NCBI GenBank assembly: GCA_029934475.1
Contig: JAOZMC010000002.1
Span: forward strand, 27-64,026
DNA from: Arcobacteraceae bacterium
GTDB taxonomy: Bacteria > Campylobacterota > Campylobacteria > Campylobacterales > Arcobacteraceae
Direction of reading: 5' to 3'
Length of the DNA: 64,000 nucleotides
Of the stretch, positions 7,035-53,250 are shown piece after piece. Under the pieces are notes generated by a model. It was not told the origin of the DNA, searched no databases, and was given only the letters and a program-made list of their open reading frames with translations. Both the position numbers and the translations under genes were made by a program. How positions within the stretch are numbered: position 1 is the first letter of the stretch; the number at the start of each line of letters is the position of its first letter.

Positions 7035-7044
7035 AGGACAAAAG

Positions 7045-7212: not shown

Positions 7213-7222
7213 AATTAGTGTT

Positions 7223-7246: not shown

Positions 7247-7307
7247 GATATGTTTGTGCCATATAGACAACATAATATATCGGCGATAAACAACAAGGAA
7301 CAAAAAG

Positions 7308-8726: not shown

Positions 8727-8783
8727 AGAACTAACATAAAAAAGAGCACAAAAGCACAGATACTAACGATAAAAGATATATTT

Positions 8784-10474: not shown

Positions 10475-10488
10475 AATATAAGGATATT

Positions 10489-11028: not shown

Positions 11029-11039
11029 CCGTGCTTATC

Positions 11040-27447: not shown

Positions 27448-30400
27448 ATGAATAATATTTACAAGTTAAAATCAATATCAATAGCGACAATATTTTCGTT
27501 GTTTTTGGTAGGCTGTGAGCTAGGCAATATCAAAACTGCTATATCTATAGAGGGTAGAGTAGCCAAAGGTGCTATAGGTGGAGCTACTGTCACAGCATAT
27601 AAGGCTGGCACGACAGAAGTGATAGGAACTGCAACCACAGATACAAATGGCTACTACAAGCTAGACGGCGATATATTTTATGACGGTGTGATTTATATAG
27701 AATCTGCTGGTGGAACATATACAGATGAGCTCACAAATGCTGCCGGCAAAGATGCCAGTGTGTTTGACCTACAAGCTGTATCAAAAGTGGGTGCTGATGA
27801 TGGATATGTATTAAATATTACACCATTTTCAACTGTGGCATACAGAACCATGCAAAATGATGGAGCAGATATAACTTCTCCAACTACTGTAGGCAAATAC
27901 AACAAGGCAATATCGGATATATTTATAGGCAATGGCTTTGATATCACTAAGACCACACCAAACCTGCACGGCGATACGACTGACAATGACTTAGATAGCG
28001 AAGATGAAGAAAAGTATGGTTTCATGCTAAAAGTATTTACAAAGATGATAAACTCAAACGAAGCAAATGTAAATGGCAAGATAAACGATATAGTCGGTGC
28101 TATCGTGAGTCTTGACGATATGACTATCACAGAGGCTTTGGCAGATGAGATAATAACAACATTTATAGACCCTGTGGTAGCTACAGATATGACAGCTGAA
28201 GAGATATCTGATATGAATGACACTATCAATGATGCTAGAGATACAAAGCTACCAGATATCAGTGGCTCTTTGGCGAAAATATCTGCCGAGTTCAATACCA
28301 CCATAGCTACTTGGTCGCCAGTAGTAGCTCCTACAGGTGGGGTTATAACTAGCTGTGAAATATCACCAGACATCAACACGAGCTATGGCTTGACATTTGA
28401 CAAAACCAATTGTCAAATAAGCGGCAAACCAAACAAAGTAAATACAGAATCGTTTACTATAGTGCCAGCAAACCTCAAAGGCAAGGGAAACTTTTTTGTC
28501 ATATCTTTGGAAGTAAACAAGACAGCACAAGCACCATTTTCGCTAGATGGTAGCACAGTGTTTGAAAAAAACTCTACAGACTACACACAGACGACTGTAG
28601 GCGGTAGCTGTGTAGATGGAAGTTTGAGTTTTGAATCAAACGATACAAATGTAGCAGATATCACACCTGTAAGCGGTATCATAGACTTCAAAAATGTAGG
28701 CACAGTCCGTATCACGGCGACACTTAGCTGTGATGAATATAACGACATATCAGCAACAAAAGATATAACAGTAAATGATGTAGCTCCTGTCATCACTAGT
28801 CCAAACGATATCGTAGGCGAATACAACCAAACCATGACAAACTGGATACCAGACAGTAGCACAGGTGGCACGATATCTAGCTGTGAGATAGCTCCTGCTA
28901 ACTTTGAGGCAACTTATGGACTTGAGTTCAACGAAACAACATGTGAGATAAGTGGCAAACCAACAACTACAGTGCTAAATGCAGGAGGGATAAATATACA
29001 GATAAAAGCTATAAATCCTACAGGAGACAGCACTGTGTCTGTAAATCTAAAGATAGACAGAACAGACCAAAGCCCGGTGGTATCTATAGCACCAGATCAA
29101 GTATGTGTCGTAGACGATACATTTCCACAGACTGCCACAGGTGGAAGCAGTAGTGCTGTGGGATACATATATGGCACAGAGGACCCAAATATAGCCACAG
29201 TAGATGCTAGTGGTATGGTCACATGTGTAGCAAACGGCGATGTAAACATCACTGCTACGAAAGCTATGGATAGCTTTTACAACGCAAGCACAGGTAAATA
29301 CAAGGTATCTGTAGGATTGGTGCCACCAAATATCAACAACCCACAAACCACTACAGGCGTATATGGTGAAGCTGTCAGCTGGGAAGTCAACAACACAGGA
29401 GGTGTGTATGATAGCTGTATAATCACGCCAAACTTAGCACCAGATGACATAACTACAAAATACGGACTGGTATTTGATGTGGGTGACTGTAGTATAGATG
29501 GTTCGCCGACTGCTACAACTACTGGCGATGTGTCATATACTATCAAAGCGGTAACTGCAGACAGAGGAAACAGCACCAAAAATATAAACATAATCATTGA
29601 CAAAGCTTTGCAAAGTCCGTTTGGTTTTGATGATGGCATAACTTTAAATATAGGAGAAGTATCACCAAAAGCACTGGACCACATAGGCAACGGCACAGGG
29701 ACTATATCTTATGTAAGTACAGATGAAAATATGGCAGTAGTAGATGTAAATTCTGGAGCTATTACTTCTGTGTTGGCAGCAGGAACTGTAGAGATAAATG
29801 CTACTAAACAAGCTGACAACAACTATCAAATAGCTCATGCTTCATATATTTTAACTATACAAGCAGCCGATCCAAATATCACGAGTCCTGGCAATATCAT
29901 AACTGAATACAACACAACTATCACTACAAATTGGCTACCAAACAACACAAACGGCGGCCCTATCGAGGAGTGTGAGATATTGCCACTATTTACAGCAAAC
30001 AGCGGTATGGAGTTCAACACAACCACATGTGAGATAAGCGGAACTCCTCTATATACAAAAGAGAGTGGCACACTATATACTATAACTGCCAAAAACAAAA
30101 GCGGTGCAGGAGTTAGCACTACATCGGTTAAACTCACTGTAAACAAAGCAGACCAAGACCCACTTATCGTGCCTTTGGCTACTGTTGATGATACTATGGC
30201 AGATGTAAGCCATCAGCAAATTATTACAGGCGGTAGTGGCACAGGTAATATCACATTTAGTGGAGCAGTGGCAGGTAAATTTACTGTAGATACAAACAGC
30301 GGGTTGGTCACATATATAGATGAGATAGCAGGTGCTGTCATAACTGTATCAAAAGCAGAAGACGACAACTACAACGATATATCAACTACATATCTGTTGA

Positions 30401-31878
30401 ATATAGGCGACTTTAAGCCCGAGATAGGCACTTCTGCTACAGTGGCTATAGGCACATACAATGAGACAAACAACACTTTGTGGGAAGCAAACAACACAGC
30501 AGGCACAGCTACATTGGGTTACGAGACAGATCCTGCCTTGCCAAATGGTTTGTCTATAAACAACATAGGCGTGATAGGCGGAACTCCTACGAGTGCTATG
30601 AGTGCTACTGCCTACACAATCATGGCGAAAAATGCCTCTGGCAATGATACTATAGTAGTAAATATCACTATAAACAAAGCAACACAATCAAACTTTGTGT
30701 TTAACACAGGCAACAGGACAGGAGCAGTAGGCACACAATATACATATTCTGTGATAAACACAGATGTGCCTGCTGGAAATCTTATCTATACATCTTCTGC
30801 TTTGGGAGTAGATGTATCTGCCAATACAGGGTTGGTAGTCATAAGCCCAACGGCAACCTTTGGTAATGTAACCATATCTGCCACAAATAATGGCGACGGA
30901 AACTATAGTTCTACTACTGCTAGCTATATATTAGAAGTTACAGACCAAGCACCAAATATAGCAAATCCTACTACACCAAACTCAATCGTAGGTTCTTATG
31001 GCGACAACATAGGCTTTGACTTCAACAATACAGGTGGAACTATAAGCGGATGCGTGATATCAAGCGGAACTTTGCCAAATGGCTTGGCGGTAGCGGTCGT
31101 AGGCAACACCTGTCGCATACAAGGTATAGTGACCGAAGTCAAAGGCATTGGTGCATATACAATACAAGCTACAAACACAGCTGGTGATACTAGCACTAGA
31201 GGAGTGCAGATCACTATAAACAAAGCAGACCAAGCAGCATTTACAATATATGGCGACCAAACTATACCAGTGACAAATACGGCACATACTCAAACAGCAG
31301 ATGGTGGAAGCACAAACGAGGCGATACTGTATAGCTCTAGCAACACAACTGTAGCCCATGTAGATCAAAACGGCTTGATAGCACCGCATGTAGCTGGAAA
31401 CACTACTATAACTGCTATAAGACCAGGAAATGTCAGCTACAATGATATCAACGATAGCTATCTACTGACAGTCACTGATGCGGTGCTACCTACTGTTGAT
31501 TATGTAGCATCTACACCTACAAATGGTGCCATAGATGCAAACGGAACAGCAGATATCATAATAGTATGGAGCGAAGCAGTCAAGAAAATTGATGGATTTA
31601 ACATAGAGATAAAAAGCAAAGGCAACACAGCCCATGTGAAAGGTTATACTACAAACAACATAGTAGCAAACGGCGATACAAATGTTACTTTGTCGCTAGG
31701 AACGGGACATCTGAGCTATGGCGAGGAGTATTATATAGTCATAGATGCTGGAGCATTTGAAGATATGAGTGGCAACGATGCTGTTGCTCAAGGTGGAGAC
31801 GGCACATGGAATTTCACTGTGCCAACACAGACAGGCGATTGTGCCTATGATTGTGTAGACAATTGTGATAATTATTAA
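27448..31878 (+). CDS. Giant surface/secreted lipoprotein, paralog 1 (1476 aa): N-terminal domain, 6 x (He_PIG/cadherin-like Ig + Big_2-like Ig), SbsA-like Ig domain, Cys tail
   Basis: Lipobox FLVGC. Repeated modules are GG.I.SCEI.P....YGL.F...TC.ISG.P (paired Cys) alternating with .GGS...I.Y.S.D..VA.VD..G.V......G.V.ITATK. The C-terminal 130 aa are colinear with paralog 2. Confidence 0.85.
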   Translation: MNNIYKLKSISIATIFSLFLVGCELGNIKTAISIEGRVAKGAIGGATVTAYKAGTTEVIGTATTDTNGYYKLDGDIFYDGVIYIESAGGTYTDELTNAAGKDASVFDLQAVSKVGADDGYVLNITPFSTVAYRTMQNDGADITSPTTVGKYNKAISDIFIGNGFDITKTTPNLHGDTTDNDLDSEDEEKYGFMLKVFTKMINSNEANVNGKINDIVGAIVSLDDMTITEALADEIITTFIDPVVATDMTAEEISDMNDTINDARDTKLPDISGSLAKISAEFNTTIATWSPVVAPTGGVITSCEISPDINTSYGLTFDKTNCQISGKPNKVNTESFTIVPANLKGKGNFFVISLEVNKTAQAPFSLDGSTVFEKNSTDYTQTTVGGSCVDGSLSFESNDTNVADITPVSGIIDFKNVGTVRITATLSCDEYNDISATKDITVNDVAPVITSPNDIVGEYNQTMTNWIPDSSTGGTISSCEIAPANFEATYGLEFNETTCEISGKPTTTVLNAGGINIQIKAINPTGDSTVSVNLKIDRTDQSPVVSIAPDQVCVVDDTFPQTATGGSSSAVGYIYGTEDPNIATVDASGMVTCVANGDVNITATKAMDSFYNASTGKYKVSVGLVPPNINNPQTTTGVYGEAVSWEVNNTGGVYDSCIITPNLAPDDITTKYGLVFDVGDCSIDGSPTATTTGDVSYTIKAVTADRGNSTKNINIIIDKALQSPFGFDDGITLNIGEVSPKALDHIGNGTGTISYVSTDENMAVVDVNSGAITSVLAAGTVEINATKQADNNYQIAHASYILTIQAADPNITSPGNIITEYNTTITTNWLPNNTNGGPIEECEILPLFTANSGMEFNTTTCEISGTPLYTKESGTLYTITAKNKSGAGVSTTSVKLTVNKADQDPLIVPLATVDDTMADVSHQQIITGGSGTGNITFSGAVAGKFTVDTNSGLVTYIDEIAGAVITVSKAEDDNYNDISTTYLLNIGDFKPEIGTSATVAIGTYNETNNTLWEANNTAGTATLGYETDPALPNGLSINNIGVIGGTPTSAMSATAYTIMAKNASGNDTIVVNITINKATQSNFVFNTGNRTGAVGTQYTYSVINTDVPAGNLIYTSSALGVDVSANTGLVVISPTATFGNVTISATNNGDGNYSSTTASYILEVTDQAPNIANPTTPNSIVGSYGDNIGFDFNNTGGTISGCVISSGTLPNGLAVAVVGNTCRIQGIVTEVKGIGAYTIQATNTAGDTSTRGVQITINKADQAAFTIYGDQTIPVTNTAHTQTADGGSTNEAILYSSSNTTVAHVDQNGLIAPHVAGNTTITAIRPGNVSYNDINDSYLLTVTDAVLPTVDYVASTPTNGAIDANGTADIIIVWSEAVKKIDGFNIEIKSKGNTAHVKGYTTNNIVANGDTNVTLSLGTGHLSYGEEYYIVIDAGAFEDMSGNDAVAQGGDGTWNFTVPTQTGDCAYDCVDNCDNY
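28255..31485 (+). repeat. Array of about 12 alternating Ig-like coding modules (protein-level repeats) in paralog 1
   Basis: Six He_PIG-like and six Big_2-like modules of about 85-95 aa each, identified by recurring motifs in the translation. Confidence 0.7.
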
Positions 31879-31888
31879 GGAGAAAAAG

Positions 31889-34800
31889 ATGAAAAAATAT
31901 ATAAAAATATTATTGGTAATGATACCAATACTGTTGATATCATTTAGTGGATGTGGAGACAAAGGAACCGAAGGTGCCGTAACTACTGGATTGATCATAG
32001 AAGGCAGAGTGGCAAAAGGCTCTATAAGTGGAGCTACCATAGAAGTGTTTGATACAACTACTGGCGACTCTCTAGGGGTAGATGTGACCGATAGCCAAGG
32101 ATATTATAGCATAAAAACTTCGGCAAATACAAAAGGTGTAGTTAGACTTACGGCAAATGGTGGTTCGTTTATAGATGAACAAACAGGCAATCAACTAGAC
32201 GCTTCTGCTTTTGAGCTTGTAGCAGTCCAAGACACTACATATGAAGAAAGTATAGTAAATATAAATATTACTCCATTTACGACTGTATCGTATAAAAAAC
32301 TTATAGCAGACGGTAAAGATATAGGTTCAAAAGATGATGTGACCAAATACAACAAAGCTATAGCGAGCATATTTGTAGGAAACAAAAATATAGAGATCAC
32401 AAAGCTAGAGCCAAATATTGTAAACGATGCAAACGACAATCACCTAGACACAGATGACCAAAAAAATTATGGCACTATACTAGCAGCATTTTCAGGAATG
32501 ATACAAAACACTCCCGTGCTTACAACATCAGAGATAAACAATATTGTTGGGAAAATCAAAAATATAGAATATGCTACTATAGAGCAAGACTTAGCAAGCC
32601 ATATACAAAGCTATATTGCTGACATAAACACTACCAACGAACAGACAGATGAAAGTGTAAATGATATCAACAACTCAATAGAAAAAGCAGTATATTCAGT
32701 AGTGCCAAATATAATCGACTCAGCACCAAACCTAGACGATAATATAGATGAGAACAGCACAAAAATATCTTGGATACCTGTAACAAAAGAGGAAAGTGTC
32801 ACAAGCTGTAAATTGGGAGACGGTGTAAATCTAGCTGAATACAATCTTACATTTGATAGCGAAACATGTGCTATAACAGGAGAACCAAATGCTACGCACA
32901 CAGGAAAAGATATATATATAATTCCTTCAAATCCAGAAGGTGAAGGACTACCTTTTAGCTTAAATTTCAAGATAGATAGGATAGCACAAGCACCGATATC
33001 GTTTGTTCCTAGTGATAAAGAGGAGTTTAATGTGACAGATGGCAACTTTGATTTTGATATAACTGGTGGGACTTGTGATGATCTATCTGCTACAAGATTT
33101 GTATCTAGTGATACAGATGTAGCAAAAGTAAATATCAGCACAGGAATAATAGATATTAACACCACTGGAATATTTACACTCACAGCTACAAAAACTTGCA
33201 GCGAAGGCTATCTAGCAAAAGAGGTATCAAAAACAATAACCGTGCTACAAGTTCTCCCAAATATTGCTACAAGCACAGACATAAATGCTTCTATGAGTCA
33301 AGTGCTTGATTGGAATGTTACAAACACAGGCGGCTCTATAGATAGCTGTGCTATAGATACAGATATAAAAACACTCTACAATCTTGACTTTGACCAAACA
33401 ACTTGTGCTATTACTGGTGTGCCAAATACGACAAATATACCAGTTGGTATAGATGTGTCTATCACGGCTACAAACAGTATAGGCGACAACATTCAAGCTG
33501 TGCATATCCTTATAAATAGCAATCCAAACATAGATAATCCACAAAATACTATAGGTATATACAATACTCCAGTTGTATGGGATGTAAATAATACTGGCTC
33601 AAATGTAGGCATGATAACTAGTTGTGAAATAACACCAAATACGCTAAAAAACAACTACAATCTTGACTTCAATCAAACAAACTGCCAAATCACAGGTGAA
33701 GCAAACAAGACAACTACAGGCGACAACAGCTACACTATCACAGCAAAAAATATATCTGGCAATAGTGCTAAAAATATCAATATAGTTATAGACAGATCGC
33801 CACAAGATCCGATACTATTTGACCCAAATACCAAAAATGAATTTAACTTGACTGATATTGATTTTGACTTTGGTATCACAGGTGGAAACTGTAGCGGCAT
33901 AGAAACTATAACATATAACTCAAACGACACAGCTATAGCAGATGTCAATACGACTACCGGTGTAGTAAATATGCAAGGTGTAGGTGAGTTTAACCTCACT
34001 GCGACAAAAACTTGTAGCGAAAACTATTTGCCTGCAGTTGTGTCTAAGCTTATGACGGTTCACAATGTCGTGCCAGATATAACCAACGACAACAATATCA
34101 CAACTGAATATAATACTACTATAGCTACATGGAGACCATCAAATACAGGTGGAACTATCACCGGTTGTGCTTTGGACCAAGATATCAATAGCATGTATGG
34201 GTTGGATTTTAATGATACTACATGTGCTATATCAGGAGAGCCAAATGCCACCATACAAGCTGGCATCAACATAGGAGTTACAGCTTCAAATGAGATAGGA
34301 GATAGCAACACAATAGTATTACAACTAATTATAAACAAAGCTGTCCAAAATCCAATAGTAGATATGACAAACAACAATGCCAACTGCTACAAAGGAACAT
34401 CACCAATCATACACAAAGATGCTACAGGCGGGAGTAGTTCGTTTGATTATAACTATACTTCAAGCGACACAAATATAGCTACTGTAGATCCTGTCACAGG
34501 AGTAGTGAGTTGCATAGAGTTTGGTGAAGCAAATATCACGGCTACTAGAGCTGAAGATGACAATTGGCTTGAAAGTTCTCACTATTATACTATAGTGGTT
34601 TCAAACAATGCTCCAAATATAGACAATCCGCAAAATACTACAGGAATATATAATGAAGCAGTAGTATGGGATGTAAACAATAGTGGAGCAAATGTAGGAC
34701 CGATAGAAAGCTGTGAAATAACTCCAAACAATCTAAAAGCTACATACAATCTAGACTTCAATCAAACAACATGCCAAATCACTGGCATACCAAGTGCCTC

Positions 34801-37174
34801 TACCATAGGGGATAGTAGCTGGACCATTAAAGCTATAAACACTACAGGAAATAGCACAAAAAATATAAATATTGTTATAGATAAGGCTGAGCAAAATCCA
34901 TTTGGTTTTGACAACAATCTAACAATACACAAGTATGCAACTGGCTCAAATGCTCTTGATCATATAGGCAATGGCACTGGAGTTATTGAGTTTAAAAGCT
35001 TGGATGAGGATTTTGCGGTTGTAGATAGTGGTTCTGGCGATATAACACAAGCAAAGCAGATAGGAGACGTTCAAATACTTGCCACAAAAGGTAGTAGCGA
35101 CAACTTCAAAGAGACCAATGCCACATATACTTTGACTATCATAGATGCTGACCCAAATATCACAACACCAAACGATATATCTATAGAATACAATGAAACA
35201 TTTAGTTGGATGCCAGATAAAACAAATAGTGGCGAGATTGATAATTGTTCTATATTGCCTGTATTTGCAGCAAACAGCGGATTAGAGATAAACAACACGA
35301 CATGTGAGATAACAGGAGCTCCGCTTTTTGTAAAAGAAAGTGGGACAGAACATACTATAACCGCTACAAACAAAGCAGGAGTTGGTGTAGATACTACGAT
35401 AGTAGATATAGTAGTAGTAAAAGCGGAACAACAAGCACTTATAATACCACAGTCATTTATCAGTGATATTATGAGTGATATAGGACACCAGCAAGTCATC
35501 ACTGGAGGAAGTGGCGATGGAAATATCACATTTAGCAGTGCTGCATCGCCTACATTTATAGACCTAAACACAACTACAGGTGCTGTAGTATATAAAAAAC
35601 CATTTGACAACAACAAAACTATTATAGTATTGAAAAAAGGCAATGACTTTTATAAAAACAAGCAAGATAGCTACAAGTTTGTAGTAGGTGATTTTATACC
35701 GAACCTATCTGACTCTATAGCAGCAACAAGTGCAAATTTTGATGAGCTAAACAATACTTTATGGGAGCCTATAAATACAGGTGGCAATACTACATATGAC
35801 TATACCACAAACCCAGCTTTGCCTGCTGGATTGACTATACATCCCACTACAGGTATCATAGGTGGCACACCACAAAGCGCTCAAGATTCTGCACCATACG
35901 AGGTCAATGCCACAAATGCATCTGGCACATCATTGTTTGTAGTCAATATTACTATAAACAAAGTCCCTCAACCAAACTTTAGATTTAATGACGGCAACAG
36001 AACTAGTGAGCTAGGAACTAGCTTTGAATACAATGTTACAAATATAGACGCCCCTACAGGCACACTCACATATACCACAAGTGACCCAGCCAAAGCACTA
36101 GTAACAAACAGTGGAGTCGTGACTATAAACGATGCAGATACAAAAGGTAATGTAACTATAACAGCTAGAAATCAAGGCGATGGAAACTACAGTAGCACAG
36201 TAGCAACATATATCATAACCATAATAGACAAAAAGCCAAATATAGCAAACCCTATGACAAGTGAAGAACTAAATACCACTTATATGCAGACAATCCCAAC
36301 TTTCGAGTTTAATAACACAGGCGGTCCAGCCGTGAGCTGTATAACTGTGGGTGATGATTTGCCTACTGGATTGGAAGTAAATGTGACAGCTGGTGGCAAT
36401 TGTGTCATCACAGGCACACCAACCGAGGTAAAAACAGATCAAATATATACTATACGGGCTATAGGAGAGTTTGGCGATGAAAGCACCAAAGAGATACATC
36501 TATTTGTAGACAAAGCACATCAAACTGGATTTGATATAGTAGATGTGGATAAATATCTTGAGTCTGTAGTGTTGGATTTCAACAGAACTGGCTATGGTGG
36601 CAACACAACTTTGGATATACAATACACCTCTAGCAACGAAACTATAGCACTAGTAGGAGCGATCACTGGTGTGATAACACCAAAAACTACTGGCAATGTG
36701 ACAATAACAGCAACAAAACCAGGAAATGTAAGCTTCTATGATGCCAATGCAAGTTATAAGTTGATAGTGCAAGATACTTTAAGACCAGTAGTGGATTATG
36801 CCATATCTACACCTACAGACGACGAAGCAGATGCAAATGCAACTGCAAACTTGATCATAGTATGGAACGACAATATATCTATAAATGATGGCAAAACTAT
36901 ACGAATAAAAAGTGATGGCGATACCAACCTCACAATAACATACAGCACCACAGATTTGGTGATAGTTGGCGATAGAAATATTACTTTGGATTTGGGCAAC
37001 TTACACTTAAGTTATGGCGAGGAACACTATATTTATATAGAAGCTAACTCAGTAGCAGACAGTGGTGGAAATGTGAACGATGCAATAGACGATCAAACTA
37101 GCTGGAATTTTAGTGTATTGAGCGACAGTGGGCCTTGTAAACTAGATTGTGTGGACAATTGTGACAATTATTAA
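31889..37174 (+). CDS. Giant surface/secreted lipoprotein, paralog 2 (about 1761 aa): same architecture with 8 He_PIG-like + 7 Big_2-like modules
   Basis: RBS AAGGAG at 31877-31882 and ATG at 31889 (the track start 31865 lies inside the paralog 1 coding end). Lipobox SFSGC. The N-terminal domain (IEGRVAKGSISGAT...) and C-terminal 130 aa are homologous to paralog 1. Confidence 0.85.
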   Translation: MKKYIKILLVMIPILLISFSGCGDKGTEGAVTTGLIIEGRVAKGSISGATIEVFDTTTGDSLGVDVTDSQGYYSIKTSANTKGVVRLTANGGSFIDEQTGNQLDASAFELVAVQDTTYEESIVNINITPFTTVSYKKLIADGKDIGSKDDVTKYNKAIASIFVGNKNIEITKLEPNIVNDANDNHLDTDDQKNYGTILAAFSGMIQNTPVLTTSEINNIVGKIKNIEYATIEQDLASHIQSYIADINTTNEQTDESVNDINNSIEKAVYSVVPNIIDSAPNLDDNIDENSTKISWIPVTKEESVTSCKLGDGVNLAEYNLTFDSETCAITGEPNATHTGKDIYIIPSNPEGEGLPFSLNFKIDRIAQAPISFVPSDKEEFNVTDGNFDFDITGGTCDDLSATRFVSSDTDVAKVNISTGIIDINTTGIFTLTATKTCSEGYLAKEVSKTITVLQVLPNIATSTDINASMSQVLDWNVTNTGGSIDSCAIDTDIKTLYNLDFDQTTCAITGVPNTTNIPVGIDVSITATNSIGDNIQAVHILINSNPNIDNPQNTIGIYNTPVVWDVNNTGSNVGMITSCEITPNTLKNNYNLDFNQTNCQITGEANKTTTGDNSYTITAKNISGNSAKNINIVIDRSPQDPILFDPNTKNEFNLTDIDFDFGITGGNCSGIETITYNSNDTAIADVNTTTGVVNMQGVGEFNLTATKTCSENYLPAVVSKLMTVHNVVPDITNDNNITTEYNTTIATWRPSNTGGTITGCALDQDINSMYGLDFNDTTCAISGEPNATIQAGINIGVTASNEIGDSNTIVLQLIINKAVQNPIVDMTNNNANCYKGTSPIIHKDATGGSSSFDYNYTSSDTNIATVDPVTGVVSCIEFGEANITATRAEDDNWLESSHYYTIVVSNNAPNIDNPQNTTGIYNEAVVWDVNNSGANVGPIESCEITPNNLKATYNLDFNQTTCQITGIPSASTIGDSSWTIKAINTTGNSTKNINIVIDKAEQNPFGFDNNLTIHKYATGSNALDHIGNGTGVIEFKSLDEDFAVVDSGSGDITQAKQIGDVQILATKGSSDNFKETNATYTLTIIDADPNITTPNDISIEYNETFSWMPDKTNSGEIDNCSILPVFAANSGLEINNTTCEITGAPLFVKESGTEHTITATNKAGVGVDTTIVDIVVVKAEQQALIIPQSFISDIMSDIGHQQVITGGSGDGNITFSSAASPTFIDLNTTTGAVVYKKPFDNNKTIIVLKKGNDFYKNKQDSYKFVVGDFIPNLSDSIAATSANFDELNNTLWEPINTGGNTTYDYTTNPALPAGLTIHPTTGIIGGTPQSAQDSAPYEVNATNASGTSLFVVNITINKVPQPNFRFNDGNRTSELGTSFEYNVTNIDAPTGTLTYTTSDPAKALVTNSGVVTINDADTKGNVTITARNQGDGNYSSTVATYIITIIDKKPNIANPMTSEELNTTYMQTIPTFEFNNTGGPAVSCITVGDDLPTGLEVNVTAGGNCVITGTPTEVKTDQIYTIRAIGEFGDESTKEIHLFVDKAHQTGFDIVDVDKYLESVVLDFNRTGYGGNTTLDIQYTSSNETIALVGAITGVITPKTTGNVTITATKPGNVSFYDANASYKLIVQDTLRPVVDYAISTPTDDEADANATANLIIVWNDNISINDGKTIRIKSDGDTNLTITYSTTDLVIVGDRNITLDLGNLHLSYGEEHYIYIEANSVADSGGNVNDAIDDQTSWNFSVLSDSGPCKLDCVDNCDNY
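32702..36781 (+). repeat. Array of about 15 Ig-like coding modules in paralog 2, including an internal module duplication
   Basis: Modules at about 33526-33810 and about 34612-34900 (NIDNPQNT.GIYN..VVWDVNN.G.NVG.I.SCEITPN.LK..YNLDFNQT.CQITG...) resemble each other more than any other module pair. Confidence 0.7.
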
Positions 37175-37274: not shown

Positions 37275-38150
37275 ATGAAAAACTCTGTAGTGTTGCCATT
37301 TGTGCTTATGTTTGTGATGTCGTTTTCTATGCTTGTAGTAAATTTCGTTCAGAGCACTAGCCATATCATAGAGCAAAATCCATATCAAGATATAATCATA
37401 TCAAATACAGCGATAAACTCTATCAAGACAACCATAGTGAAGGCTCTAGCACCATACAGTAAAGTTCCAGACGAAGAGGTGTTGGCAATGTTGGCAAACA
37501 TAACCATAACTGATAAAAAAAATATCATAACTATGTCTGTCAGCATAGAAAAAGCCCCAACACTGATAGATATAAATCGTATGTTTGTATTTAACAAGAG
37601 ATTTAACCAATGGAAACTTAAAGACAAAATAAGAGTATGGCTAGTTGATGCTTTGAGTTTAAGGTTTGAATTAAATGAGCCATACTACTTGATAATGCTA
37701 CTAGAAAACACTTTAAATCATAATAGTGAGATAGTTTCAGAAAACTTTAGATATAATGAGGGGAAAATATATAGTTTGAAACATTTTTACAAAACTGTGG
37801 ATTATTATAAATTCTTTACAAGTGATGATATGATAGACAAAATACAATTTGAAGATATGTTTAGTTTCGACGATACAAACGATACTAGATATTGTGATGA
37901 TATGACCGATGTTGTATCAAAGCTTGTATCGGACGAGTATGATACAGAGGATTCTGGGATTGATTGTGAAAGCCCTACGGCAATTGTCAAGGAAAAATTA
38001 GATAGCTTGGGTATAATAAGTGGAAATGATAGCAGCTCACAAAAAGTCACAGGAACAGTGAGCTTCACATCTAACAACAAAGAAAAAATAGCAAACTTTG
38101 CTTATGATTTCAAAAAAAAGGAGATAACAAGTTTTGATATTCGGTTCTAG
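37275..38150 (+). CDS. Bitopic protein, first gene of the T2SS-like operon (GspK-like minor pseudopilin by position/topology only)
   Basis: 291 aa with RBS AAGGA. It has an N-terminal hydrophobic helix (VVLPFVLMFVMSFSMLVV) without the Glu5 motif and an acidic C-terminal region. No family motif recognised. Confidence 0.45.
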   Translation: MKNSVVLPFVLMFVMSFSMLVVNFVQSTSHIIEQNPYQDIIISNTAINSIKTTIVKALAPYSKVPDEEVLAMLANITITDKKNIITMSVSIEKAPTLIDINRMFVFNKRFNQWKLKDKIRVWLVDALSLRFELNEPYYLIMLLENTLNHNSEIVSENFRYNEGKIYSLKHFYKTVDYYKFFTSDDMIDKIQFEDMFSFDDTNDTRYCDDMTDVVSKLVSDEYDTEDSGIDCESPTAIVKEKLDSLGIISGNDSSSQKVTGTVSFTSNNKEKIANFAYDFKKKEITSFDIRF

Positions 38151-38970
38151 CAAAAGCAATCACTTTTTTTTGGATAAAAATACAAAAGAGTTTGCTACTC
38201 ACTCTGTCAATATTATACTGTCTCCTAGTTTTTATTGGACTAAGATACAAGAGATACCAGTGCTTACAGTATATGGTGCAAAAGAGTATTCTAATTCTAT
38301 ATTTGAAGGACTATTGCCAGAGGGCAACTGGACATATTTTGTTCAAAAAGAAGCAAAAAATCTATATAGATTTTTTGCTTTTGATCAAGATGAGCTTTTG
38401 GATTTTATCATATCAATAGGTGGCGACGAGCAGTATGTTCGCTCTTTGTATTTTGCACAAAATGAGTTTGATGATATATTGGACGATGAACAGTCAAAGT
38501 TTATATCTATAAGCGATAACAAATGTATGACAAAAATTCAAAACTCTGTCGTACTAGTGCCAAAAACTATAGTAACAGATAGTATAGATATGGATGATAT
38601 CTTAGATGATATAAAACTTTCACAACATGATATAAAAATAGATACCAACATCAGTATAAACACAGATATATTTATGGTGTTTATAGTTGTGGGATTGATA
38701 TTTTCATCTGGATTTGTTATAAATATAATCAACTATAACATGGAGATAGCAAAACTAGAAAACAATATTACAGAAAAAATCAAAATTCTAAAGCTACCAG
38801 AGACATCATTTGAACTAGAAGCTATAGCTACACAAAGTTCTGCAAAGATAAAAGAGCAAATAAACATAAGAAAAAATATCAAACAAATAAGCTCTATAAA
38901 AACAACACAATACGGCAAAATAAAGAAGCTAAAAATAACAAAAGAAAAGTTATCGGTATATGACAAATAA
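38134..38970 (+). CDS. Bitopic protein with about 180-aa cytoplasmic part, one central TM helix and C-terminal coiled segment (GspL/PilM-N-like by topology)
   Basis: 278 aa with a TTG start that overlaps the upstream gene by 17 nt. TM helix FMVFIVVGLIFSSGFVINIINY. Assignment is by architecture, not by motif. Confidence 0.45.
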   Translation: MIFGSSKSNHFFLDKNTKEFATHSVNIILSPSFYWTKIQEIPVLTVYGAKEYSNSIFEGLLPEGNWTYFVQKEAKNLYRFFAFDQDELLDFIISIGGDEQYVRSLYFAQNEFDDILDDEQSKFISISDNKCMTKIQNSVVLVPKTIVTDSIDMDDILDDIKLSQHDIKIDTNISINTDIFMVFIVVGLIFSSGFVINIINYNMEIAKLENNITEKIKILKLPETSFELEAIATQSSAKIKEQINIRKNIKQISSIKTTQYGKIKKLKITKEKLSVYDK

Positions 38971-39346
38971 AAATAAAAATTATCTACTAATAGCTTTTGT
39001 GGTTGGGTTTATTCTGCTTTTTATAACTACAAATAAATTTGAATCAAAAAAAGATGATGCTGTAACAAAATACACCACGATGCAAAAACTGCTACTAGAT
39101 GTAGAAAAAAACAAAGACAAATTTACTTATGAAAAAACCAAAGCCATAATAGATTCTGCTACATTTAAACAATATATAAAAACAGAAGAAAAAGAAAACT
39201 TGACAACGATAGTGTTTAATGCTCCATTAAAAATAGCAAATGCTTTCATTCGAAAGCTGGCAAATTCAGATTCATTGTTGGGCGAAATAGAGATACAACA
39301 AATAGAAAAAAGAGTCAAGATAATAATCAGGATAAAAAATGGATAA
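38960..39346 (+). CDS. Small bitopic protein (GspM-like by size/topology)
   Basis: 128 aa with N-terminal TM helix YLLIAFVVGFILLFITT followed by about 100 aa of periplasmic alpha/beta region. Overlaps both neighbours. Confidence 0.45.
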   Translation: MTNKNKNYLLIAFVVGFILLFITTNKFESKKDDAVTKYTTMQKLLLDVEKNKDKFTYEKTKAIIDSATFKQYIKTEEKENLTTIVFNAPLKIANAFIRKLANSDSLLGEIEIQQIEKRVKIIIRIKNG

Positions 39347-39923
39347 TATAAAAGCTATTTTATCTGTAATTATAGACAGACTAAGAGGACTAGAGAGCAT
39401 GCATATAGGTGGTGGTGTGAAGTTTCTCTTGTATGGCTTTTTGATACTGTTTTTTATAGTTTTTTTGTCACCCAAACAACAGCTCTATTTTTATCTCGAA
39501 GAAAAACTACAGCCATATAAAATCATAATATATCAAGAAAAGATTGAGCCGTTAAACACAGGTATATGGCTAAAAGATGGTATGGTCTCTTATGACAAGA
39601 TATTTATAGGATTGTTTAGCAATATAGTCATAAATACATATTTTTTCAAGACAAATATAGTCGTAGATGGTTTTCTGATAGACAAGGATTTTGAGATGTT
39701 TATACCATCAAAGATAGACAAGATAGCACTATCTCATAGTATTGTAAATCCGCTAAATGTTATCATAGAAGCGAAAGGAGAGTTTGGTGAGCTTGATGGG
39801 ACTTATGATTTTATCAGCGGTAAGCTAAAGCTGAAACTAAAGCCTAGCGATATCATGAAAACAAAAAAAGCATCACTAAAACTCATGACAAAAACCAAAG
39901 ATGGATACAAATATGAGAAATAG
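39339..39923 (+). CDS. Bitopic protein (GspN-like by size/topology)
   Basis: 194 aa with TM helix FLLYGFLILFFIVFL and a beta-rich periplasmic part ending in a GEFGELDGTYDFISGKLKLKLK-type motif. Confidence 0.4.
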   Translation: MDNIKAILSVIIDRLRGLESMHIGGGVKFLLYGFLILFFIVFLSPKQQLYFYLEEKLQPYKIIIYQEKIEPLNTGIWLKDGMVSYDKIFIGLFSNIVINTYFFKTNIVVDGFLIDKDFEMFIPSKIDKIALSHSIVNPLNVIIEAKGEFGELDGTYDFISGKLKLKLKPSDIMKTKKASLKLMTKTKDGYKYEK

Positions 39924-40818
39924 AGGTATGATAGCAAACGGACTGCTAATAATAGCTTTGATATATCTTTTCATGTCTGTAGTCAAGATATTTTTGCCTA
40001 TAACATCTGTAGAGCTACAAAAAGAAATTGACTATAATTTTGCATTTAACTACTCTTTACAAAATATTTACAAAGATAAAACAAAGAAAAAAGGCAGTCA
40101 AAATAGATCTAGCTTGGATTTTAAGCTTATAGGTATATATAGCGATGGTAAAAACAGTGTGGTGATAGTCAGCAAAGATAAAAGAACTGAAGTGGTAGCA
40201 GTAGGCGAAGAATATAAAGGCTATAAGCTAGTGGATACTACAAACATATTGGCTATATGGACTAGAGACAATACCCACTATGAACTTTCTATAGAAGATA
40301 CAAAAGATAGAAAGATAGAAGCAGCATACAAAATAGAAAATGATGATCCTTTTGGAACAAAAGAGATAAAATACACCGATATACAATACTACAAAAAAAA
40401 TCCACAAAAACTTTGGGATGAGATAAATATAAACAAAACAAAGGCGGGCTACACAGTAACCAAGATAGAGCCAGGCTCAAAGCTATCTACAATAGGTCTA
40501 AAAAAGGGCGATATTATAAAAGTTATAAATGGAACTGAACTGAAAGAAGACAGAGATGCTATAAAATTCTATAAAGATATAAAAAATTTAGAATTTATAA
40601 TCATTTCTGTCTTGCGTGGCGATAAATATATAGATATAGAGTATAATATAAAATCAGAACGACAACTACCAGAAGAAGAAGAGCCAAATGAGCAAATAAT
40701 GCCTGAAAAAGAAGATATTAATATAGAACAGATAGAAATTAAAGAAAAAAACGATACAATAGAAAAAAAGCAAGACAAAAGGTCTAAAAGCAACAATACA
40801 CTAGAGGATAACAGATGA
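39901..40818 (+). CDS. gspC: T2SS protein C-like (TM anchor + HR-like region + PDZ domain)
   Basis: 305 aa with N-terminal TM helix LLIIALIYLFMSVV and PDZ signature LSTIGLKKGDIIKVINGTEL. It lies immediately upstream of the secretin and is coupled to it (ATGA). The true start may be 39913 or 39928. Confidence 0.65.
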   Translation: MDTNMRNRGMIANGLLIIALIYLFMSVVKIFLPITSVELQKEIDYNFAFNYSLQNIYKDKTKKKGSQNRSSLDFKLIGIYSDGKNSVVIVSKDKRTEVVAVGEEYKGYKLVDTTNILAIWTRDNTHYELSIEDTKDRKIEAAYKIENDDPFGTKEIKYTDIQYYKKNPQKLWDEININKTKAGYTVTKIEPGSKLSTIGLKKGDIIKVINGTELKEDRDAIKFYKDIKNLEFIIISVLRGDKYIDIEYNIKSERQLPEEEEPNEQIMPEKEDINIEQIEIKEKNDTIEKKQDKRSKSNNTLEDNR

Positions 40819-43016
40819 GAATGATAGTAAAAGTTTTGATGGTAGTTATACTATTTGGCAACTTTGCTTTTGGCAAAGATACTGTAAACATAAACTTCAA
40901 AGGACTAAACATACGGGACTTTGTCAAAATGGTAGCAAAGATACGAAACGAAAATATACTTATAGGCAGTAAGCTAAGCGGAAGTATAAACTTCATATCG
41001 GTCAAGCCAATACCAAAGAAATCACTCATGACACTACTAAATCATGTGCTAGAAACCAAGGGCTTCACTCTAGTTCGCACAGGACATAGGTATCTCAAAG
41101 TAGTCAAAATAGCAGATGCAGGTAGATCGGGATTGCCAGTAAATACAACTAAAGATACTTTCCAGATTGTCACAGAGATCATAGAAGTAGATGGAATGAA
41201 TGTTGACTTGTTGGTAACCAAGCTAAGACATCTAGTGACCAAAAACTCAAAAATAACCACTTCAAAAGAGACAAATGCTTTGATAGTTACCGATTATCCA
41301 GACAAAATCAAAAGTATAAAAAAGATTATAAATCTACTATCAAGTAAAAGTCAGCTAAGAACACAAGTGATAAGACTAGAGCATATAAAGGCAGATGTAA
41401 TAGGACCAGACATACTCAAAATTACCAAAAACCTATTTGACCCAAAAATAGCAAAAAACAATCTTGATATCATCGTCAATACAAAGACAAATACTATAAC
41501 TTTGGTCGGCAGACAATCCCAGATAGATAGAGTAGCCGAGCTAATAAACGACGCAGACAACCAAGACGACAAATCATCTATAGTCATGGAAGTAATACCC
41601 ATAAACAATAGTAGTGCCGAAGAGATGATAAAAATACTAGAGAAATTTTATGCCACAAAAGGCAAAAATGTTCTATATCAACCAAGCTTTATGAACGACA
41701 AAGAACTCAACTCTGTCATAGTGAGAGCTAGAAAAAGAGATATAGATGATATCTTTGATGTCATCAAAAAACTAGATGTACCAAAACCACAAGTATATGT
41801 AAAAGCAAGGATTATAGAGATATCTGATGAAAAGGCCAGTGATATAGGAATCAAATATGGTCTAACTGGTGGCAAAGTGACCAGCAATGGTCTCATGACA
41901 ATGAGTGCAAATATGGGCGGACAGTCAATAGCAGTAGATAGCACACTGATGAGCTATATAGATATAGACACAAATCTAAAAGAGTTTTTTGCACTTGGTG
42001 CTACATTGTCGCTGCTACAAAGAGATGGAGCGGCTGAAGTGTTGAGCGAACCGTCACTGCTTTGTCTAAATAACAAAGAGTCAGAGATATATGTAGGAAA
42101 TACCCAATCAGTCGTGACAACAACAGCAAAAGGCACCACTAGCACATCCGATACTACAAACAGCTACAAAAGAGAAGATATAGGTCTAACACTCAAGATA
42201 AAACCACGACTCTCAAGTGACAACAAAGTTACTCTAGAAGTTTCTACTATCATTGAAGATGTGCTAGGATCAGATAGCAACGGACAGCCCATAACCACCA
42301 AAAGAACAGTCAAAACTACAGCCATAGTAAACGATGCAGAGTTAGTCATGTTAGGCGGTCTAAACAAAACAAAAGAGACTACAGATATATCAAAAGTGCC
42401 GTTGCTGGGTGATATACCTGTGCTTGGAGCATTGTTTAGAAACACAAATAAAACCATGTCAAAAACATCTCTGGCTATCATGTTAACTCCATATATCATA
42501 GATGAAAACAGAAACATAAGCAAACTCAGAAATGACTTAAATATGTTAGCATTAGCTCAAGATGACTATACCACTAAAGCTATGGCAATACTTGACAACG
42601 GTGATGTGCGAGAAGTTCGGCTAGAAAAGAGAAAGACCAAAAACCCAGACAATATCTCAAGTCCCACAGCCAAAAAAAGCTTTATAAAACGATCAAGCCC
42701 ACAAGCACAACAAAGATATTATAACAAGCCCAAAACTTATAAAAAGCCCAAAAAAACCAAAAAGTATTACAAGCAACAACCAAAAGGCAAATACAATATA
42801 TATGTTGGTAAGTATTATAGTTTTAGCGAGATCAAAGAGATAAGAAACGACAAAAAAGTAAATACAAACACAGATATGAAGCTAAACTATGATGGCAAAA
42901 ATATATTTGAAGTGAGTGTCGGTCCATACAGGACTATGACAAAGACTAAAAAAATCTTAAAATATATAAAAGAGAAATACAACGAAGATGCCTATATCAA
43001 AGACAAAATAAAATAG
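40815..43016 (+). CDS. gspD: T2SS secretin GspD with C-terminal Lys-rich linker and SPOR-like domain
   Basis: 733 aa with signal peptide and N0 domain (VNINFKGLNIRDFVKMVAKI...NILIG). The secretin core includes VPLLGDIPVLGALFR. A 120-aa C-terminal extension follows. Confidence 0.9.
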   Translation: MRMIVKVLMVVILFGNFAFGKDTVNINFKGLNIRDFVKMVAKIRNENILIGSKLSGSINFISVKPIPKKSLMTLLNHVLETKGFTLVRTGHRYLKVVKIADAGRSGLPVNTTKDTFQIVTEIIEVDGMNVDLLVTKLRHLVTKNSKITTSKETNALIVTDYPDKIKSIKKIINLLSSKSQLRTQVIRLEHIKADVIGPDILKITKNLFDPKIAKNNLDIIVNTKTNTITLVGRQSQIDRVAELINDADNQDDKSSIVMEVIPINNSSAEEMIKILEKFYATKGKNVLYQPSFMNDKELNSVIVRARKRDIDDIFDVIKKLDVPKPQVYVKARIIEISDEKASDIGIKYGLTGGKVTSNGLMTMSANMGGQSIAVDSTLMSYIDIDTNLKEFFALGATLSLLQRDGAAEVLSEPSLLCLNNKESEIYVGNTQSVVTTTAKGTTSTSDTTNSYKREDIGLTLKIKPRLSSDNKVTLEVSTIIEDVLGSDSNGQPITTKRTVKTTAIVNDAELVMLGGLNKTKETTDISKVPLLGDIPVLGALFRNTNKTMSKTSLAIMLTPYIIDENRNISKLRNDLNMLALAQDDYTTKAMAILDNGDVREVRLEKRKTKNPDNISSPTAKKSFIKRSSPQAQQRYYNKPKTYKKPKKTKKYYKQQPKGKYNIYVGKYYSFSEIKEIRNDKKVNTNTDMKLNYDGKNIFEVSVGPYRTMTKTKKILKYIKEKYNEDAYIKDKIK

Positions 43017-44240
43017 ATGTTATACAAATATACAGGAGTTGATAAGCAGTTCAAAAAAGTCTCAGCCACGATAGAAGCAAACAACTTGGATGAAGCCAAA
43101 AAAACTCTTAGACAAAGTGGTATAATGTTCAACTCCATAAAGGCTCAGCAACAAAACAGCTTAGAGTTCATGTCCGTTCTTTTTACAAAAGAATTGACAA
43201 AAAAAGAGCTATCTACTCTCAGCAGAGATCTGAGCTTCTATATCAAATCTGGTATAAATATATCAAGTGCTTTGAAGCTAGCAATATCACAATACAGTGA
43301 CTCAAAAAAGATCAAAAATTTTTTAGGTGAGGTTAGCAGATCTATAGATGAGGGCAAGGATTTTGCTACATCGCTTAGTATCCAAAAACAGATAAAACTT
43401 CCTCAATTTTATGTGCAAAGTATCAAAGCATCACAAAATGGAGGCATGCTTGATAATGTATTGATGGAACTATCTACATTTATATCAAATCAAGACAAGA
43501 TACAAAAAAAAATATCAAATGCCCTAGCATACCCTATGTTTATCGTCATAAGTGCATTGCTTATGGTAGTATTTATGCTAAGCTACGTAGTACCAAAAGT
43601 CATAGGTATATTTGAACAAAACAAACAAGAGCTACCGCTCATCACCAAATATGTGCTAGCTTCGAGCGATTTTGTGGGTGATTATTATGTGACAATACTG
43701 GTGCTAATAGTTTCTACTATATTTGCCGTGAAATATCTAAATAAAATTTCACCCTTGTTTCGCTACTCTTATGATGGTATCATCTTGAAGCTTCCACTTT
43801 TTGGTCCTATCATACTTATAAGTGAGTTGTCACGATTTAGCTATATGTGTTCGTTGTTGTTGCGGTCTGGCATGACATTGGTTGAGACAGTCAAGCTATC
43901 ATCTCAACTTTTGGACAATGTAGTCTTGGCCAAGATATTTGACGACAGTTCTACTTTTGTAGTCCAAGGCGGCAAACTCTCCTCCTCTTTGATGAGTAGA
44001 AATATTGATATACTGCCCAAAAGTTTCATCCAGTCTATCGCTCTAGGTGAAGAGACTAGTATGTTGCAAACTGTACTTTCTACACAGGCGGTGCGGTTTG
44101 ACGAAGACAACAGCGACAAGATAACTTTCATGCTATCACTTCTTGAACCTATCATGATGCTAGTTGTTGGCACTATCATCGCCATAATCGTCCTAGCCAT
44201 GATGTTGCCGATATTTTCTATAAATATAGGTGGTATGTAG
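43017..44240 (+). CDS. gspF: T2SS inner-membrane platform protein GspF
   Basis: 407 aa with a duplicated GspF domain, three TM segments and a typical C-terminus (LLEPIMMLVVG...MLPIF). Confidence 0.9.
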   Translation: MLYKYTGVDKQFKKVSATIEANNLDEAKKTLRQSGIMFNSIKAQQQNSLEFMSVLFTKELTKKELSTLSRDLSFYIKSGINISSALKLAISQYSDSKKIKNFLGEVSRSIDEGKDFATSLSIQKQIKLPQFYVQSIKASQNGGMLDNVLMELSTFISNQDKIQKKISNALAYPMFIVISALLMVVFMLSYVVPKVIGIFEQNKQELPLITKYVLASSDFVGDYYVTILVLIVSTIFAVKYLNKISPLFRYSYDGIILKLPLFGPIILISELSRFSYMCSLLLRSGMTLVETVKLSSQLLDNVVLAKIFDDSSTFVVQGGKLSSSLMSRNIDILPKSFIQSIALGEETSMLQTVLSTQAVRFDEDNSDKITFMLSLLEPIMMLVVGTIIAIIVLAMMLPIFSINIGGM

Positions 44241-44629
44241 TGAAAACATCGTTTTTGCTTATAGAGGCTATCATGGCTATAGTTATATTGTCGTTTTCTC
44301 TTGTGGGATTGTTGCAGTTAAATGGCACAACTATGGATATGTTGGCATTTGTATCTAGCAGAAGTTCGCTATATCAAGATGCCTCGCTAGTCAGTCAAAC
44401 TATCACCAAAGACTACAACAAAAAAACAAAATCTGCCTACGATATAGTATCAAAAAAATACAATATAGATAATCTCGATGTCAAACAAGCATTGTCAAAA
44501 GAGAAATACAAGATAAAAGTAGACAGTTATTCACAGCTAGTATTTGCTGATATATTTACGATAGATATCCATAGGATATCACTCTCAAACGAAAAAAATA
44601 AAATCCAAATATATAAATTAACCCCATGA
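44240..44629 (+). CDS. Pseudopilin (minor-type), prepilin-like N-terminus MKTS/FLLIEAIMAIVIL
   Basis: 129 aa with a GTG start overlapping the gspF stop. It has the F-x-L-I-E motif followed by a hydrophobic helix, with Ser rather than Gly at -1. Confidence 0.6.
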   Translation: MKTSFLLIEAIMAIVILSFSLVGLLQLNGTTMDMLAFVSSRSSLYQDASLVSQTITKDYNKKTKSAYDIVSKKYNIDNLDVKQALSKEKYKIKVDSYSQLVFADIFTIDIHRISLSNEKNKIQIYKLTP

Positions 44630-52819: not shown

Positions 52820-52869
52820 TTTTCAGTAAATAACTTTTGGATTAAGAAAGTTTGGATAAAATACCCAAA

Positions 52870-53227: not shown

Positions 53228-53250
53228 TAAACATAAGCCTTTTATTTTCA

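Follow-up and report, generated by a model that had tools for sequence, protein, structure and literature searches.

Two neighbouring genes of an Arcobacteraceae bacterium raise the question of whether a bacterial lipoprotein can carry tens of N-linked glycans and, if so, by which enzyme they would be added and by which route the product would reach the cell surface. The genes, here called P1 and P2, are two adjacent + strand open reading frames (ORFs), taken from the ORF listing and its translations, at positions 27448–37174 of the window, i.e. the whole 64,000-nucleotide stretch of contig JAOZMC010000002.1 (assembly GCA_029934475.1) that was analysed. An initial annotation had placed two giant lipoproteins at these coordinates, correctly, and had proposed that they are massively N-glycosylated, on the basis of hand counts of about 20 and about 40 extended sequons (D/E-X-N-X-S/T, X not Pro). 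The recount gives 20 in P1 and 41 in P2, and every sequon example that had been listed was found to be correct. From the sequence evidence described below, we consider it probable that P1 and P2 are hyper-N-glycosylated surface lipoproteins, exported by a type II secretion system (T2SS) and modified by a PglB-type enzyme encoded elsewhere in the genome.

Sequons were counted with the regular expression [DE][^P]N[^P][ST], and the expected number was obtained from composition-preserving shuffles of each protein (n = 5000). P1 (27448–31878, + strand; 1476 aa, 154 kDa, pI 4.1) has 20 extended sequons among 38 N-X-S/T sites, or one per 74 residues, and P2 (31889–37174, + strand; 1761 aa, 188 kDa, pI 4.2) has 41 among 67, or one per 43. 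Both proteins are compositionally rich in Thr, Asn, Asp, Gly and Ile, and their shuffled versions hold 2.8 ± 1.6 sequons for P1 (z = 10.5) and 4.2 ± 2.0 for P2 (z = 18.6). The excess is thus 7–10-fold, and the observed count is reached in none of the 5000 shuffles of either protein. The initial annotation had suggested this comparison and a second one, with other proteins, which was run within the window: its other 46 ORFs together hold 10 sequons against 11.9 expected. The related motif D-P-N-I-T, which has Pro at −1 and is not accepted by PglB, occurs in some domain linkers (P1 residues 808–812, about positions 29869–29883; P2 residues 1088–1092, about positions 35150–35164); it is excluded by the regular expression, and the counts are independent of it.

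The enrichment is also specific in its form. Asp or Glu is found at −2 of 55% of the N-X-S/T sites in P1 and of 66% in P2, against a background of 11–12%, with no acidic enrichment at any other offset from −6 to +6, and Asn residues outside sequons have an acid at −2 in only about 10% of cases. At +2 of the acidic sequons the ratio of Thr to Ser is about 6–8:1, against 1.8:1 in the background, and a bias for Thr over Ser is the acceptor preference of PglB. As the alternation of side chains in β-strands could favour motifs of the i, i+2, i+4 type, the mirror motif [ST]xNx[DE] and 14 residue-swapped decoys were counted as a control. The mirror motif occurs at 0.4–0.9 times the expectation and nearly all decoys at 2.5 times or less (one value of 5.4 times rests on a single count), compared with 7–20 times for the true sequon, which rules out an artefact of strand periodicity. 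The same controls bear on a broader alternative, namely that the sequon pattern is a structural feature of the repeated modules of these proteins (turn capping, an Asn/Thr ladder or cation binding) that spread by duplication and remains unglycosylated. The residue at −1, often aromatic or aliphatic and thus β-strand-like, speaks for such an origin, but the unenriched mirror and decoy motifs and the fit of the Thr bias to the preference of PglB speak against it. In addition, seven unrelated giant proteins from other phyla with He_PIG domains, a family also present in P1 and P2, have 0–1 sequons against 0.6–2.1 expected.

Both proteins start with a basic/hydrophobic signal peptide that closes in a lipobox, read directly from the sequence as L-V-G-C in P1 (27448–27516, Cys23) and F-S-G-C in P2 (31889–31954, Cys22); the P1 and P2 orthologues of a sister metagenome-assembled genome (MAG), described below, have L-S-G-C and FTGC, respectively. 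The start of P2 is most plausibly the ATG at 31889, which gives a length equal to that of the database-called product P0022. The lipoboxes and the conserved intradomain Cys pairs indicate that P1 and P2 are extracytoplasmic. The two are paralogues, with 46% identity across about 1200 residues, and in both the Pfam families He_PIG (57 and 76 bits in P1 and P2, cutoff 24) and Big_2 (38 and 54 bits, cutoff 22.8) score above their gathering thresholds. The repeat regions are made of two types of module of about 90 aa each, type A being He_PIG-like with a conserved C-x19-C, and type B Big_2-like with C-x40-C in some copies. Cys spacing and module alignments give six A and six B modules in alternation for P1 (28252–31497), and eight A and seven B modules are recognised in P2 (32705–36796) from module alignments. 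An AlphaFold model of P2 residues 729–1003, computed from an 11-row module alignment, covers an A-B-A segment and has a mean pLDDT of 86.6; it shows three β-sandwich domains, and its best Foldseek matches are tandem cadherin/Ig domains. The C-terminal Ig-like domain of each protein has a weak PDB match to structures named 'surface anchored protein'. The N-terminal non-repeat region gave no match in a sequence search against the PDB, and its model, with a pLDDT of 46, was left out of the fold search. We propose an architecture with a short N-terminal β-sandwich and a helical region, 12–15 alternating Ig/cadherin-like modules, an Ig-like C-terminal domain and a Cys-rich tail, in which the modules would be stabilised by one disulfide each.

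The tail directly precedes the stop codon and reads C-AYD-C-VDN-C-DNY in P1 (31840–31875) and C-KLD-C-VDN-C-DNY in P2 (37136–37171). In the form C-x3-C-[VI]DN-C-DNY-stop it is near-identical in P1, P2 and all orthologues, despite the 46% identity between the two proteins. No other ORF of the window or of 87 loci has this tail, and a scan of the JGI metagenome collection with its exact DNA pattern gave no match. A role as a tag for sorting, anchoring or metal binding is possible.

As the initial annotation had noticed, sequons recur at equivalent positions of the modules: the 14 C-x19-C modules have three hot spots, occupied in 6, 6 and 7 of them, which is a point in favour of a structural origin. 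However, the sequons fall into 11 distinct columns of the A-module alignment and 16 of the B-module alignment, i.e. at least 27 structural positions, and three to five more per protein are found outside the modules, including the non-repeat N- and C-terminal regions. With so many distinct columns, and a mean identity between modules of 35% for type A and 26% for type B, the count is not just the result of inheritance through duplication. In the P2 model, five of the seven sequon Asn are located in loops or at strand ends. Taking these observations together with the comparative evidence that follows, we regard an unglycosylated structural pattern as very unlikely.

Two sister MAGs (GCA_029935755.1 and GCA_029940435.1) have the same locus, and the conservation of the sequons was analysed with the orthologues of a sister MAG, which hold 26 sequons (2.3 expected) and 44 sequons (4.2 expected). 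The number of sequons expected to be shared between two proteins was derived from the background rate at which N, D/E and S/T are retained in the rest of the same alignments. The P1 orthologues (60% identity) share 15 of 20 sequons against 3.8 expected (P = 8e-8), and the P2 orthologues (78% identity) share 37 of 41 against 19.0 (P = 4e-9). A similar retention is seen between the paralogues, where 15 of 20 are shared in the window (46% identity; 2.2 expected, P = 3e-11) and 14 of 26 in the sister MAG (45% identity; 3.3 expected, P = 6e-7). The X positions of the sequons are about 50% identical, and in the more diverged comparisons they are conserved no better than the protein average. Since D/E, N and S/T are retained while the X positions drift, the pattern is the one expected if purifying selection acts on the motif as such, and the freedom of the X positions to vary also argues against a structural role of the segment.

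The strongest argument that the sequons are used comes from an independent parallel in another genus. A genome scan, with alignment A1 of the representative PglB clade tied to an 'Arcobacter sp.' MAG as the query, gave at least 578 PglB-encoding genomes, the best 80 of which were used for all counts of PglB neighbourhoods. One of these, a Sulfurimonas sp. MAG (L013, NZ_JBFFMZ010000002.1), has a block at 163–14726 of co-oriented genes for, in order, a GspC-like PDZ protein, GspD, GspE, GspF, GspG, three pseudopilins, a protein in the position of GspK, PglB and a lipoprotein. The PglB (10001–12112) has the STT3, STT3-PglB_core and PglB_C domains and the motifs WWDYGYP and DGGKH. The lipoprotein (12363–14726; 787 aa, lipobox FVGC), whose gene is followed by one of the SapC family, has 25 sequons against 1.2 expected (P = 3e-24), with D/E at −2 in 25 of its 33 N-X-S/T sites. 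A screen of all 915 ORFs of 150 aa or more in the 80 neighbourhoods gave no other sequon-dense product, the next best P being 3e-3. It has no Pfam domain and no BLAST match to the proteins of the window. The T2SS encoded beside it is homologous to that of the window (48% identity for GspE, 36% for GspF and 31% for GspD), and a homologous T2SS is found in none of the other 79 PglB loci. Thus, two unrelated lipoproteins adjacent to the same type of T2SS share a saturation with the PglB motif, and one of them adjoins PglB. That a domain-less lipoprotein beside PglB has the same signature is a further argument against a structural origin of the pattern in P1 and P2.

In order to place PglB relative to this lineage, a C. 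jejuni PglB query, checked against 5OGL, was run against the big databases, where the matches listed were dominated by Campylobacter, and an exhaustive representative search gave 150 diverse PglBs. The best 80 of the at least 578 PglB genomes include Sulfurimonas, Sulfurospirillum, Sulfurovum and at least seven Arcobacteraceae/Arcobacter MAGs. PglB is thus widespread in the lineages around that of the window. Within the Arcobacteraceae, PglB is present in some MAGs only; one of them is GCA_028687375.1 (L023), the DnaE of which (L087) is among the closest named relatives of the DnaE of the window (64%). The Arg equivalent to C. lari R331 is kept in the L013 PglB and in all 19 aligned representatives; this residue has been proposed to form a salt bridge with the −2 acid and is not sufficient for specificity (PMC4894442). 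PglB adjoins metK-ndk-yceD-plsX-fabH in L006 (492–7382), lies near metH in two Arcobacteraceae chromosomes (L015 and L025, about 2500–12100), and in L074 (4963–12085) lies near a YhcG nuclease gene 74% identical to that of the window. The positions of the window that match these sites contain toxin–antitoxin-like cassettes and an HPF-like gene, with no PglB or remnant of it, so PglB is encoded elsewhere in the genome of this lineage or was lost.

Several observations count against PglB-dependent glycosylation and T2SS export of P1 and P2, and have to be set beside this evidence. No WWDYG/STT3 ORF or remnant is present in the 64-kb window, and no contig of this lineage (JAPOGX, JAPOGY) is among the best 80 of the at least 578 PglB genomes; the MAGs of the lineage may be outside the collection, may rank below the best 80, or may have no PglB gene. 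This lack of a PglB tied to the genome or lineage would favour a structural origin of the sequons, and it would also favour modification by another enzyme. To our knowledge, pgl genes are reported to be missing from the Arcobacter species in culture. The lineage is also a deep branch, since its DnaE, 96% identical to that of a sister MAG, is at most 66% identical to anything outside its three MAGs. The other exported proteins of the window have no sequon excess (5 observed, 5.5 expected) and so give no independent sign of a general glycosylation system. In the P2 model, two of the seven sequon Asn lie inside β-strands, which would suit a structural pattern; PglB would have access to them only before folding, and they suggest modification before or during folding. 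Finally, the putative status of P1 and P2 as T2SS cargo is deduced from gene adjacency alone. The massive N-glycosylation put forward by the initial annotation is therefore only partly supported overall, with all the predictions that can be read from sequence on its side: the exact −2-acid sequon, the preference for Thr, the selection on the motif, the export signals, the conserved Cys pairs and the Sulfurimonas parallel.

Glycosylation of the Asn residues by a different enzyme, either a cytoplasmic N-glycosyltransferase (NGT) like HMW1C or an unrecognised oligosaccharyltransferase not homologous to PglB/STT3, has a precedent in HMW1 of Haemophilus influenzae, a giant surface adhesin with about 31 N-glycosylated Asn, whose modification is linked to its secretion locus (PMC2877744, PMC4550697). 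HMW1 is the closest precedent for the density of sites in P1 and P2, and it is the only known bacterial protein with some 30 N-linked sites, which are made by the cytoplasmic NGT (PMC2877744). However, the HMW1 enzyme is a soluble GT41 protein that adds single hexoses at plain N-X-S/T, HMW1 is exported by two-partner secretion, and the system lacks a −2 acid rule, a lipobox and an STT3 enzyme. NGTs need just N-X-S/T, and a strict −2 acid, as in the sequons of P1 and P2, is the mark of Campylobacter-type PglB (PMC6025236, PMC4894442). Profile searches found no HMW1C-like GT41 gene and no two-partner secretion partner in the gene block, and L013 has a true PglB between its T2SS and its sequon-dense lipoprotein. 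A 684-aa membrane protein encoded upstream of P1 was considered as an alternative glycosyltransferase and rejected, as both its topology and its weak matches are RND/MMPL-like, and the topology is not of the GT-C type. A different enzyme thus appears to us very unlikely.

The operon that follows P2 encodes a T2SS, a role that had been left unused in the interpretation of the initial annotation. Eleven co-oriented + strand genes, with overlapping or abutting ends, follow P2, and neither the P1/P2 junction nor the interval from P2 to the T2SS genes contains a + strand terminator-like site. The first four of these (37275–39923) are overlapping small genes for proteins of 291, 278, 128 and 194 aa with single membrane spans; they have no family match in profile searches, and probably serve the T2SS as accessory components or minor pseudopilins. 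The first (291 aa) is weakly GspK-like (34% over 83 aa with the protein in the GspK position of L013). A bitopic, probable T2SS accessory protein in this interval (38134–38970) has three extended sequons against 0.34 expected, two of which (EGNWT and DTNIS) are kept in the sister MAG; this protein might be glycosylated as well, or its sequons may be due to chance. Then come genes for a GspC-like protein with a PDZ domain (39901–40818; best matches Pfam PDZ_2 and NCBIfam GspC, both below cutoffs), the GspD secretin (40815–43016; Pfam Secretin, Secretin_N and GspD N0, and TIGR02517 with 356.8 bits for a cutoff of 351.35), the inner-membrane platform protein GspF (43017–44240; Pfam T2SSF, with TIGR02120 as the best match, below cutoff), and two pseudopilin-like proteins of 129 and 174 aa (44240–45150) that have prepilin-type N termini and a 30% match to an L013 pseudopilin. 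The row continues with the GspE secretion ATPase (45147–46661; Pfam T2SSE with 448 bits, TIGR02533 as the best match, below cutoff), the protein that is 48% identical to L013 GspE.

The last gene of the row (46661–48049) encodes a PgmG-like phosphoglucomutase/phosphomannomutase (PGM/PMM), with four PGM_PMM Pfam domains and NF046027 as the best match, below cutoff. The initial annotation had described a phosphomannomutase fused to the end of the operon, but this is a separate gene with a GTG start that shares 1 nt with the GspE stop, an overlap that is kept in both sister MAGs. The idea that it could supply sugar nucleotides gains modest support from a 57% identical homologue in a Sulfurospirillum MAG (L084, 6425–12103), where a row of genes encodes PGM/PMM, GalU (scoring above cutoff), a nucleotide-sugar dehydrogenase and PglB. 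As such a PGM–PglB row is present in only one of the 80 PglB loci, the link remains speculative.

Upstream of P1, four + strand genes lie between dnaE and P1 (23402–27273), as described from ORFs, Pfam and topology. The first, whose start overlaps the end of dnaE, encodes a 156-aa secreted protein, and the second the 684-aa membrane protein mentioned above, which is RND/MMPL-like, with about 12 spans, two large periplasmic loops and weak matches to HpnN. The third and fourth encode a 246-aa outer-membrane β-barrel protein (Pfam OMP_b-brl) and a 122-aa protein. It is uncertain whether these four genes belong to the P1/P2 system, with which they might be linked as a module for the export of lipids or lipoproteins. 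The sister MAG has the same gene order, including the upstream genes. In the nearest outgroups the region downstream of dnaE does not contain the block, which is thus lineage-specific.

These neighbours also offer a different destination for the two proteins, which might be glycosylated by PglB without being T2SS cargo, and either stay in the periplasm or on the outer membrane's inner leaflet, or arrive at the surface in another way. Indeed, secretion by the T2SS was deduced from synteny, no T2SS secretion signal is recognisable in any sequence, and the RND/MMPL-like protein and the outer-membrane barrel encoded upstream could form a different export route. Against this, the gene order is tight, co-oriented, terminator-free and kept in three MAGs, the block is lineage-specific, and the only other sequon-dense lipoprotein found also adjoins a homologous T2SS. 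There is also a precedent in SslE and PulA, lipoproteins that are encoded with their own T2SS (PMC5012682). SslE of E. coli, also called YghJ, is a lipoprotein about 1500 aa long, whose gene directly precedes its T2SS operon, and it is surface-exposed and released (PMC5012682); YghJ has been described as heavily glycosylated (PMC8718676). Like SslE and Klebsiella PulA, P1 and P2 are lipoproteins encoded with a T2SS, and in size and upstream position they are similar to SslE. In contrast, SslE is an M60 metalloprotease/mucinase, whereas P1 and P2 have no enzymatic domain and are Ig/cadherin-like repeat rods with N-sequons. Moreover, the glycosylation of SslE is O-linked. Overall, we find a location or route that does not involve the T2SS unlikely, though less so than a structural origin of the sequons or a different glycosylating enzyme.

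The route that we favour, with glycosylation by a PglB-type enzyme and export by the T2SS, would involve four steps. P1 and P2 would be exported by Sec and lipidated at Cys23 and Cys22, respectively, as deduced from the lipoboxes. In the periplasm, in a state that is still unfolded or flexible, they would be N-glycosylated at many of the 20 and 41 sites by en bloc transfer, through a PglB-type (STT3-family) oligosaccharyltransferase that is encoded elsewhere, as suggested by the sequon signature and its conservation. The hexose-1-phosphate for the nucleotide-sugar or glycan donor might, speculatively, be supplied by the PGM/PMM. Folding and disulfide formation would follow, and then passage across the outer membrane by the T2SS encoded directly downstream, which we infer from the conserved co-oriented synteny and the Sulfurimonas parallel. 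The product would be a glycan-cloaked rod of about 14–16 Ig-like beads, held at the surface or released, and acting as an adhesive or protective coat. If all sites carried a 1.4-kDa glycan of the Campylobacter type, about 28 and 58 kDa would be added to P1 and P2, corresponding to 18% and 31% of the protein mass.

The family to which P1 and P2 belong appears to be restricted. A search of 5.8 billion proteins gave only the query itself, one orthologue with 78% identity and otherwise generic Ig-domain matches, and two metagenome scans, one using peptide patterns from the N terminus and the other the DNA pattern of the C-terminal tail, gave no further members. The low DnaE identity places the lineage as a deep, sparsely sampled branch of the Campylobacterales near the Arcobacteraceae, the named matches (62–64%) being to Arcobacteraceae, Arcobacter sp. 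and Campylobacterales MAGs, and for 15 housekeeping proteins the 90% clusters contain no named member. The outgroup MAGs that come closest, GCA_029935705.1 and GCA_029935775.1 (L085 and L086), have neighbouring assembly accession numbers and so are probably from the same sequencing project as the lineage. A literature search with the MAG accessions and sequencing runs gave no match.

Several other features were noted in the window. A poorly coding stretch upstream of metH (1063–2859) contains an ORF similar to RHH antitoxins (1118–1345) that overlaps a RelE/ParE-like ORF (1342–1596), and two ORFs, at 1063 and 1721, that share their first residues, MIDLFYLDTILKTTQR, and thus imply a direct repeat; a gene similar to ribosome hibernation factors lies on the − strand at 2485–2859. 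The only Rfam match of the window is a class A bacterial RNase P RNA at 52868–53232 (240 bits, for a gathering score of 100), and no tRNA genes are present in it. At the right edge an ORF of at least 433 aa (62702–64000), running off the window, encodes a flavoprotein that is weakly similar to type III sulfide:quinone reductase, a hint of sulfide oxidation by the organism.

The closest system in terms of the motif is that of PglB in Campylobacter jejuni and C. lari, of the same phylum, which uses D/E-X-N-X-S/T without Pro (PMC6025236, PMC4894442). Its substrates, such as CmeABC, CgpA and the lipoprotein JlpA, are likewise Sec-exported periplasmic, membrane or lipoprotein species; between about 53 and more than 60 such proteins are known, typically with one site or a few, CmeA, CmeB and CmeC having two sequons apiece (PMC6478998, PMC6025236). 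In contrast, P1, P2 and their orthologues have 20–44 conserved sites per protein, one per 43–74 residues, in 150–190-kDa Ig-repeat lipoproteins tied to a T2SS, a type of cargo that C. jejuni does not have. In the literature that could be searched, we came across neither PglB substrates dense in sequons nor a linkage between T2SS and PglB. A dense N-glycosylation of abundant surface proteins is known from archaeal S-layer glycoproteins, where the single-subunit STT3-type AglB is responsible and the coat is part of the envelope (PMC2952790). These differ from P1 and P2 in being archaeal and in having plain N-X-S/T sites, with no −2 acid and no lipoprotein/T2SS route, and the likeness does not imply that P1 and P2 form a lattice.

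Small Ig-like modules that tolerate sequons at many positions could serve as templates for multi-site carriers in PglB-based bioconjugate vaccines. The reason why bacteria N-glycosylate proteins is still debated, and proteins in which selection maintains 20–44 sequons would mark a natural extreme, where the function probably lies in the glycan coat as such, be it shielding from proteases or phages, adhesion or hydration. The recurrent linkage to a T2SS, in one genome also to PglB, suggests an undescribed route for the surface display of N-glycoproteins. More tentatively, since we hold it to be possible and somewhat less likely than its contrary, some environmental Campylobacterota may have a dedicated module in which a T2SS, a PglB-type enzyme and one or two cargo lipoproteins co-evolve, with unrelated cargos, namely P1/P2 and the domain-less L013 lipoprotein, becoming saturated with sequons independently. 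If so, dense N-glycosylation would be a requirement for producing a glycan-cloaked coat or for its passage through the T2SS, and these proteins would be the first natural hyperglycosylated substrates of PglB and a bacterial counterpart of the archaeal S-layer glycoproteins.

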